Assembly: GCF_057098645.1 (NCBI RefSeq)
Contig: NZ_CM169472.1
Direction: 5' to 3' (one strand)
Length of the DNA: 64,000 nt
Shown: piece by piece, positions 15,368 through 15,688 of the stretch
How positions within the stretch are numbered: position 1 is the first letter of the stretch
How the letters are laid out: the number at the start of each line of letters is the position of its first letter
Position numbers and translations under genes: made by a program
Notes under the pieces: generated by a model
Database searches by the model: none
What the model saw: the letters and a program-made list of their open reading frames with translations, nothing else
Told to the model about the DNA's origin: nothing

Positions 15368-15688
15368 ATGAAAATTACATTACTGGTTACCTTGCTTTTC
15401 GGTCTGGTTTTTTTAACCACCGTCGGTGCTGCCGAGAGAACCTTAACCCCACAACAACAGCGTATGACCTCCTGTAATCAGCAGGCGACGGCACAGGCGT
15501 TGAAAGGGGATGCTCGTAAGACCTACATGAGTGATTGCCTGAAGAACAGCAAGTCTGCGCCTGGTGAAAAAAGTTTGACGCCACAGCAGCAAAAGATGCG
15601 CGAATGTAATAATCAAGCAACGCAACAATCACTGAAAGGTGATGATCGTAATAAGTTTATGAGCGCCTGCCTCAAGAAAGCCGCCTGA
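15368..15688 (+). CDS. psiF: Phosphate starvation-inducible protein PsiF
   Basis: Start at MKITLLVTLLFGL... (signal peptide); contains an internal two-fold repeat. Confidence 0.88.
   Translation: MKITLLVTLLFGLVFLTTVGAAERTLTPQQQRMTSCNQQATAQALKGDARKTYMSDCLKNSKSAPGEKSLTPQQQKMRECNNQATQQSLKGDDRNKFMSACLKKAA

Follow-up and report, generated by a model that had tools for sequence, protein, structure and literature searches.

Tandem cysteine-containing modules in PsiF, the protein encoded behind phoA in Escherichia coli, and in its wider family

What does PsiF, the small protein encoded behind alkaline phosphatase in Escherichia coli, do, and what can its repeated sequence tell us about it? The gene is a core member of the E. 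coli Pho regulon and belongs to a widespread family with about 2,000 representative clusters. To our knowledge no role has been assigned to it since 1990. We found no functional study of the protein, and the searchable literature consists of expression lists only, in which psiF figures as a PhoB-activated gene of the phoA-psiF operon and nothing else. This agrees with the initial annotation of the locus, which had described the protein as lacking an assigned function. Hypotheses can nevertheless be narrowed by the autonomous appearance of its modules, by the uniformly exported and basic character of the family, and by the persistence of psiF at loci that have lost phoA.

The psiF gene and its internal duplication

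We analyzed a stretch of 64,000 nucleotides (the window; contig NZ_CM169472.1 of assembly GCF_057098645.1), in which the list of open reading frames and the RefSeq/PGAP annotation identify the iraP-phoA-psiF-adrA(dgcC)-proC region of E. coli. Features of the locus are collected in Table 1. RefSeq/PGAP has the identical 106-aa coding sequence under the name psiF, and the stretch around it (15240-15800) was found in 5,425 of 5,426 complete E. coli genomes. The NCBIfam equivalog model NF008560 ("phosphate starvation-inducible protein PsiF") matched the protein over its full length (positions 1-106 of 106) with 234.5 bits against a cut-off of 165. The genomic setting associated with this equivalog, a position 3' of phoA behind a PhoB-dependent promoter, was also found, with gene order and Pho box read from the window and PhoB dependence taken from published data (PMC10294691). 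The protein is 99% identical to E. coli PsiF (P0001), from which it differs by V14 in place of L14.

Table 1. Features of the phoA-psiF locus (positions in the window)
Feature	Position	Strand	Basis
Pho box of the phoA promoter (CTGTCATAAAGTTGTCAC), PhoB site for phoA-psiF	13754..13771	+	pattern search
phoA (alkaline phosphatase), upstream gene of the operon	13834..15249	+	ORF; annotated start GTG 13834
Intrinsic-terminator-like hairpin plus U7 in the phoA/psiF gap	15248..15291	+	terminator scan
psiF coding sequence	15368..15688	+	106 aa plus stop; ATG 15368 is the PGAP start
Putative signal peptide, Sec-type, aa 1-21 (MKITLLVTLLFGLVFLTTVGA), predicted cleavage after VGA	15368..15430	+	n-region Lys, hydrophobic core, small-x-small site
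PsiF repeat module 1, aa 24-59 (RTLTPQQQRMTSCNQQATAQALKGDARKTYMSDCLK)	15437..15544	+	Pfam PF07769, 68.5 bits alone
Inter-module linker, aa 60-67 (NSKSAPGE), 8 aa	15545..15568	+	AF2 pLDDT about 55
PsiF repeat module 2, aa 68-103 (KSLTPQQQKMRECNNQATQQSLKGDDRNKFMSACLK)	15569..15676	+	Pfam PF07769, 61.1 bits alone
Hairpin just past the psiF stop (GGGTGAGCTAC...GGCTCACCC), no clean U-run	15705..15732	+	RNA fold, -20.1 kcal/mol, z = -5.0

An in-frame ATG at 15350, six codons further 5' (15350-15367), would give a 112-aa form (MKRDGAMKITLL…), as in some database entries (P0002). A start at 15368 is more probable, in view of the PGAP annotation and of a Shine-Dalgarno-like GAGGGA. With the cleavage that the sequence predicts, after VGA, mature PsiF has a mass of about 9.5 kDa and a pI of 9.7. 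The NCBIfam model TIGR04453 of the Cys-rich protein "Lepto_8Cys" (cut-off 34 bits) matched residues 5-61 below threshold, with 21.5 bits and E 2.4e-4, which may reflect a distant relative or a signal-peptide artefact.

The initial annotation had presented psiF as two tandem copies of a Cys-containing module, each with two conserved cysteines. Its coordinates are exact (15440 falls in the codon of Thr25, and the codon of Ala106 ends at 15685, directly before the stop codon at 15686-15688), both peptides that it quoted are present in the translation, and the self-alignment on which it had made the claim depend is significant. BLASTP aligned the two halves without gaps and with 24 identities in 37 positions (65%; E 1e-17). 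The Smith-Waterman score was 131, compared with a mean of 24.1 (sd 5.1, maximum 54) in 5,000 shuffles, corresponding to z = 21. The E-value and the shuffle z-score rule out chance or low-complexity similarity between the halves. The two repeats share 78 of about 120 aligned nucleotides, which marks the duplication as old and not recent.

The repeat has a period of 44 residues (aa 24 to 68) and a conserved core of 34-36 residues. Both copies contain a C-x20-C pair, formed in module 1 by Cys36 (codon 15473-15475) and Cys57 (15536-15538), and in module 2 by Cys80 (15605-15607) and Cys101 (15668-15670). The Pfam family PF07769 ("PsiF_repeat"; gathering cut-off 21 bits) matched the whole protein in two stretches with 115.5 bits, and the isolated halves both cover the 34-position model from end to end. 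The hallmarks of this family, two cysteines about 20 residues apart within a CN..A...L.G..R..FM..CL core, are present in PsiF. The two-module architecture is thus already known. The repeat as such adds nothing new, because PF07769 is a curated family that is defined by it and named after PsiF.

Distribution and predicted fold of the module

A profile of the single module identified 1,969 representative clusters (50% identity representatives) at E <= 1e-3, and 768 at E <= 1e-10. The best 150 of the 1,969 clusters have 2-5 modules each, in a score ranking that favours multi-module proteins. A sample free of such ranking was drawn from metagenome contigs with a degenerate DNA pattern for G-[DE]-x-R-K-x-F-M-S-x-C-L, and modules were counted with a local HMM. 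Among the 117 environmental ORFs obtained in this way, 102 had two modules, 4 had three and 11 had one. The two-module form also accounts for 114 of 148 representatives, and module numbers across the family range from 1 to 5.

Genuine single-module homologues, for which the initial annotation had proposed a search, exist as a minority. Three of the 11 one-module ORFs encode complete proteins consisting of a signal peptide and one module (L191_10 with 68 aa, L087_159 with 76 aa, and L193_11). Four others, from soil metagenome (L132, L138, L141 and L161), have one module followed by a short Cys-rich tail (P.C..GKPCGNSCI..DK.C.K), and Pfam found the PsiF repeat alone in them. The remaining one-module ORFs are frameshifted or degenerate. 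Pfam also recognized a single PsiF_repeat stretch in each of the four one-module proteins submitted. An apparent pair of single-module genes in Roseomonas was rejected as one frameshifted two-module gene: the two overlapping "PsiF family protein" CDSs on plasmid p546-3 of Roseomonas haemaphysalidis (L084, 4940-5204) are its halves. A tblastn search of plasmids with PsiF gave 14 records.

A hydrophobic N-terminal signal region was present in 136 of 140 representatives, and a TM-like segment beyond the N-terminal region in none of the 140. The repeat region is basic, with a median pI of 9.6 and values above 9 in 91% of members. Among the top Pfam families listed for 71 members at E <= 1, no second family recurred meaningfully, and a scan of the longest members for domain fusions returned PsiF_repeat alone. 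A subgroup (P0147, P0181 and P0267) combines 2-3 repeats with a long Ala/Pro/Thr linker and a C-terminal domain of about 55 aa (…CPGDTVVWVNT.S..YH……YG.TKQGAYMC..DA..AG.R.AKNEK) that had no Pfam match.

The two copies do not carry position-specific signatures. In 107 two-module proteins, mean identity between proteins was 0.547 for first repeats, 0.558 for second repeats and 0.549 for first against second repeats, and no position-specific repeat signature was found across the set. The two repeats inside one protein had a mean identity of 0.64. Depending on the family member, the second Cys of module 1 and the first Cys of module 2 are spaced 9 to 71 residues apart. Judged from these sequence comparisons, identities and spacing fit autonomous modules that have been repeatedly duplicated or homogenised, and fit an asymmetric two-part domain less well.

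Structure prediction, another check proposed at the outset, gave one helix-loop-helix hairpin per module. AlphaFold2 (AF2) was run on PsiF without an alignment and with 71 diverse two-module homologues, and both runs agree on four helices, 28-42 and 48-60 in module 1 and 72-86 and 91-104 in module 2. The helices have pLDDT values of 80-94 (83-89 in module 1, 82-94 in module 2), and those of the linker are about 55. The pTM of 0.38-0.41 means that there is no confident packing of module on module. A PDB sequence search with PsiF gave nothing below E 0.46, and Foldseek found no fold match in the PDB.

The consensus of 324 repeat units, T-P-Q-Q-x-[KR]-M-K-x-C-N-x-x-A-x4-L-K-G-D-x-R-K-x-F-M-S-x-C-L-[KS], can be read in terms of such a hairpin. 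Thr-Pro-Gln-Gln would be an N-capping box that opens helix 1, Lys-Gly (K10/G11, counted from the first Cys as position 0) would form the apex of the hairpin, and the following Asp would cap the N-terminus of helix 2. Positions in register across this apex add up to the same value (C0 + C21 = A4 + F17 = 21), which suggests that the two cysteines of a module face each other across the hairpin, next to the invariant layer of Ala4 and Phe17. The contact of a small with a large residue in this layer would allow a close approach of the helices.

The C-x20-C spacing is found in 252 of the 324 units, and both cysteines are retained in 666 of 679 unique repeat units, the 13 exceptions being truncated or error-laden sequences. 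This conservation bears out the claim of two conserved cysteines per copy well beyond E. coli. Export, hairpin register, odd module numbers, the AF2 hairpin and the Cys conservation together make one disulfide within each module (Cys36-Cys57 and Cys80-Cys101), which the initial annotation had considered likely, plausible. The cysteines would pair within and not between modules because members with three and five modules exist. DsbA would then staple each hairpin with a single disulfide. The invariant Cys pairs are equally compatible with metal binding, to which we return below.

Since two-module proteins predominate (102 of the 117 environmental ORFs), the two hairpins might act jointly, for instance in a four-helix bundle, and not as independent beads. 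The functional unit would in that case be the two-module protein, with its hairpins packed against each other, or against another PsiF molecule, in a single domain. The majority among the representatives points in the same direction, as do the adjacent conserved hydrophobic residues of helix 2 (F17, M18 and L22), which create an apolar face wider than a lone hairpin needs. We nevertheless consider this unlikely. The arrangement of the modules is not predicted with confidence, either by pTM or by the pLDDT of the linker, the spacing between modules varies several-fold, forms with 1, 3, 4 and 5 modules exist, and the position-specific conservation that an asymmetric bundle would impose is lacking. 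Our preferred reading is that of independent hairpins, each copy being predicted to fold alone into an antiparallel helix-loop-helix structure. Since the linker is flexible and variable, the modules would act as beads on a string, with 1 to 5 beads per member.

Genomic setting of psiF

The phoA-psiF operon is directly activated by PhoB, as reported from ChIP-seq and RNA-seq (PMC10294691). The Pho-box pattern has two matches in the window, compared with 0.05 expected. The second site (31349-31366, TTTTCATAAATCTGTCAT) is probably the phoBR promoter, judged by its distance to phoA. In E. coli, transcription of psiF would start at the PhoB-dependent phoA promoter and cross the strong hairpin at the end of phoA, which has a 13-bp GC-rich stem and a folding energy of -28.1 kcal/mol (z = -5.0). 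Given this terminator, expression of psiF from the phoA promoter, and hence co-expression with PhoA, depends on read-through. The hairpin past the psiF stop codon is conserved at the loci of Enterobacter cloacae and Salmonella, and an Rfam search of the psiF region gave nothing significant.

Synteny was studied in the 80 species obtained by a genome scan, which yielded Enterobacteriaceae only. The order iraP-phoA-psiF was found in 59 of them, and iraP-psiF without phoA in the other 21, including Salmonella enterica subsp. arizonae and diarizonae, Enterobacter cloacae, Leclercia, Buttiauxella and Pluralibacter. Of the 80 species, 77 have an intact psiF, as do 20 of the 21 without phoA at the locus. 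The median dN/dS against E. coli was 0.035 (30 pairs, with dS of about 1.7 and thus near saturation). psiF is a real, constrained gene. A hairpin of -18 kcal/mol or stronger lies 5' of psiF at 51 of 59 loci with phoA, versus 3 of 21 loci without it.

Two of the loci deserve a description. In Enterobacter cloacae DSM 26481 (L033, 4660-4935) the phoA coding region is gone. A Pho box (ATGTCATAGAATTGTCAT), the final codons of phoA and a degenerated terminator are still present, and psiF lies about 260 bp behind the old phoA promoter. In Salmonella enterica subsp. diarizonae CCUG 30040T (L044, 5115-5117) an in-frame TAG in the linker would yield a 61-aa single-module product; module 2 is intact and in frame 3' of the TAG, and the gene is either naturally truncated or at an early stage of decay into a pseudogene.

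Outside the enterics, psiF homologues have unrelated neighbours: in Azospirillum these are hydrogenase genes, in Methylobacterium a porin gene, and in metagenomes the gene of a mechanosensitive channel or of a carbonic anhydrase. Contigs encoding two divergent representatives are short, with unrelated neighbours. Clustering of neighbouring ORFs at 120 metagenomic loci gave no Pho-regulon gene and no dominant neighbour, in a noisy analysis, as stop-to-stop ORFs in high-GC DNA are often spurious. Pho-box-like sites (at least 11 of 14 positions) were not enriched upstream of environmental homologues, with 1 in 92 compared with 3 in 399 controls, counted with an E. coli consensus that may miss divergent boxes. 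Because environmental homologues have neither Pho-box enrichment nor conserved neighbours, the phosphate-starvation connection seems to belong to the enteric locus and not to the family as a whole.

Possible roles and comparison with known systems

The explanation that we consider best overall, and somewhat probable, is that PsiF is an exported basic protein of independent, disulfide-stapled hairpins, which may bind polyanions and be deployed together with PhoA in enterics. E. coli PsiF is predicted to be a small, soluble periplasmic protein exported by Sec, and it consists of two PsiF repeats. Its conserved basic surface, rich in Lys and Arg and present in several copies, might bind a polyanionic or phosphorylated ligand in the periplasm or envelope, and enterics might use this binding alongside PhoA for phosphate scavenging. 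Both of these steps are speculative and are put forward with low confidence; the arguments for a ligand are the charge, the multivalency and the operon partner. Neither domain fusions nor conserved neighbours nor phenotype gave a pointer to a specific ligand in the Pfam scans, the neighbour clustering and the literature.

The cysteine pairs could instead be metal ligands, possibly together with the conserved Met that precedes each Cys at a distance of three residues (MxxC, two per module), and PsiF a periplasmic carrier of Zn or Cu, for example of Zn to the very abundant PhoA. PhoA, the operon partner, is a Zn/Mg enzyme, and the cysteines and both methionines are nearly invariant. We regard such a carrier as quite improbable. 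Exported proteins normally have their thiols oxidised by DsbA, and Cys4 sites between pairs of modules are impossible in members with three and five modules. By the layer arithmetic, the two methionines would lie on opposite sides of the Cys pair, facing Ala4 and the helix ends, as core residues would. His or Asp ligand motifs are absent from the module. The retention of psiF in species whose locus has lost phoA, and the homologues unlinked to phoA, also speak against delivery of metal to PhoA.

The same genomic evidence weighs on the idea that PsiF serves alkaline phosphatase exclusively, as an accessory for folding, disulfide formation or dimerisation of the enzyme or for its retention. Gene order in 59 of the 80 species, activation of both genes by PhoB (PMC10294691) and the appearance of both phoA and psiF in an overexpression screen for H2O2 resistance (PMC8228696) are in its favour. 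Yet the 21 species without phoA at the locus keep psiF, with 20 intact copies, the Pho box of E. cloacae now lies directly upstream of psiF, a strong terminator separates the two genes in E. coli, and the homologues of Alpha- and Betaproteobacteria sit beside unrelated genes. A dedicated role of this kind seems very improbable to us, and PsiF is no mere accessory of PhoA. Hardly any weight can be given to a role as periplasmic antioxidant, sacrificial or redox-active, in which Cys and Met would be oxidant sinks: psiF is among the ASKA clones that gave H2O2 resistance (PMC8228696) and has two Cys and two Met per 36-aa module, but this is one list entry from one overexpression screen, the positions of Met and Cys agree with a structural core, and there is neither a thioredoxin-like CxxC nor a linked msrP or dsb gene.

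Among known systems, the stapled hairpins proposed here recall two groups from the mitochondrial intermembrane space, the CHCH proteins (twin CX9C, for example Cox17) and the small Tim proteins (twin CX3C). These have two cysteines per helix, 9 or 3 residues apart, and two disulfides, whereas each PsiF helix has a single Cys, and PsiF had no Pfam or PDB sequence match to either group. A more far-reaching proposal would make the PsiF repeat an autonomous single-disulfide hairpin module, repeatedly expanded to 1-5 copies, and a bacterial counterpart of the stapled hairpins of the mitochondrial intermembrane space. It would bind an anionic partner multivalently in the periplasm, or act there as its holdase, and the phosphate-starvation label would reflect the gene's position behind phoA in enterics and nothing more. 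Taken as a whole, we find this rather unlikely.

The periplasmic helical proteins CpxP, Spy and ZraP have LTXXQ motifs (Pfam PF07813). Like PsiF, they are small, exported and all-helical, and reside in the periplasm. No match to their family was found among the top Pfam families listed for the 71 PsiF members at E <= 1. The start of the PsiF module, LTPQQ, fits the LTXXQ pattern and lies, in both cases, at the N-terminus of a helix, and this common pentapeptide is best read as a shared helix-capping box. In contrast to PsiF, CpxP and Spy lack both a conserved pair of cysteines and an architecture of 36-aa repeats.
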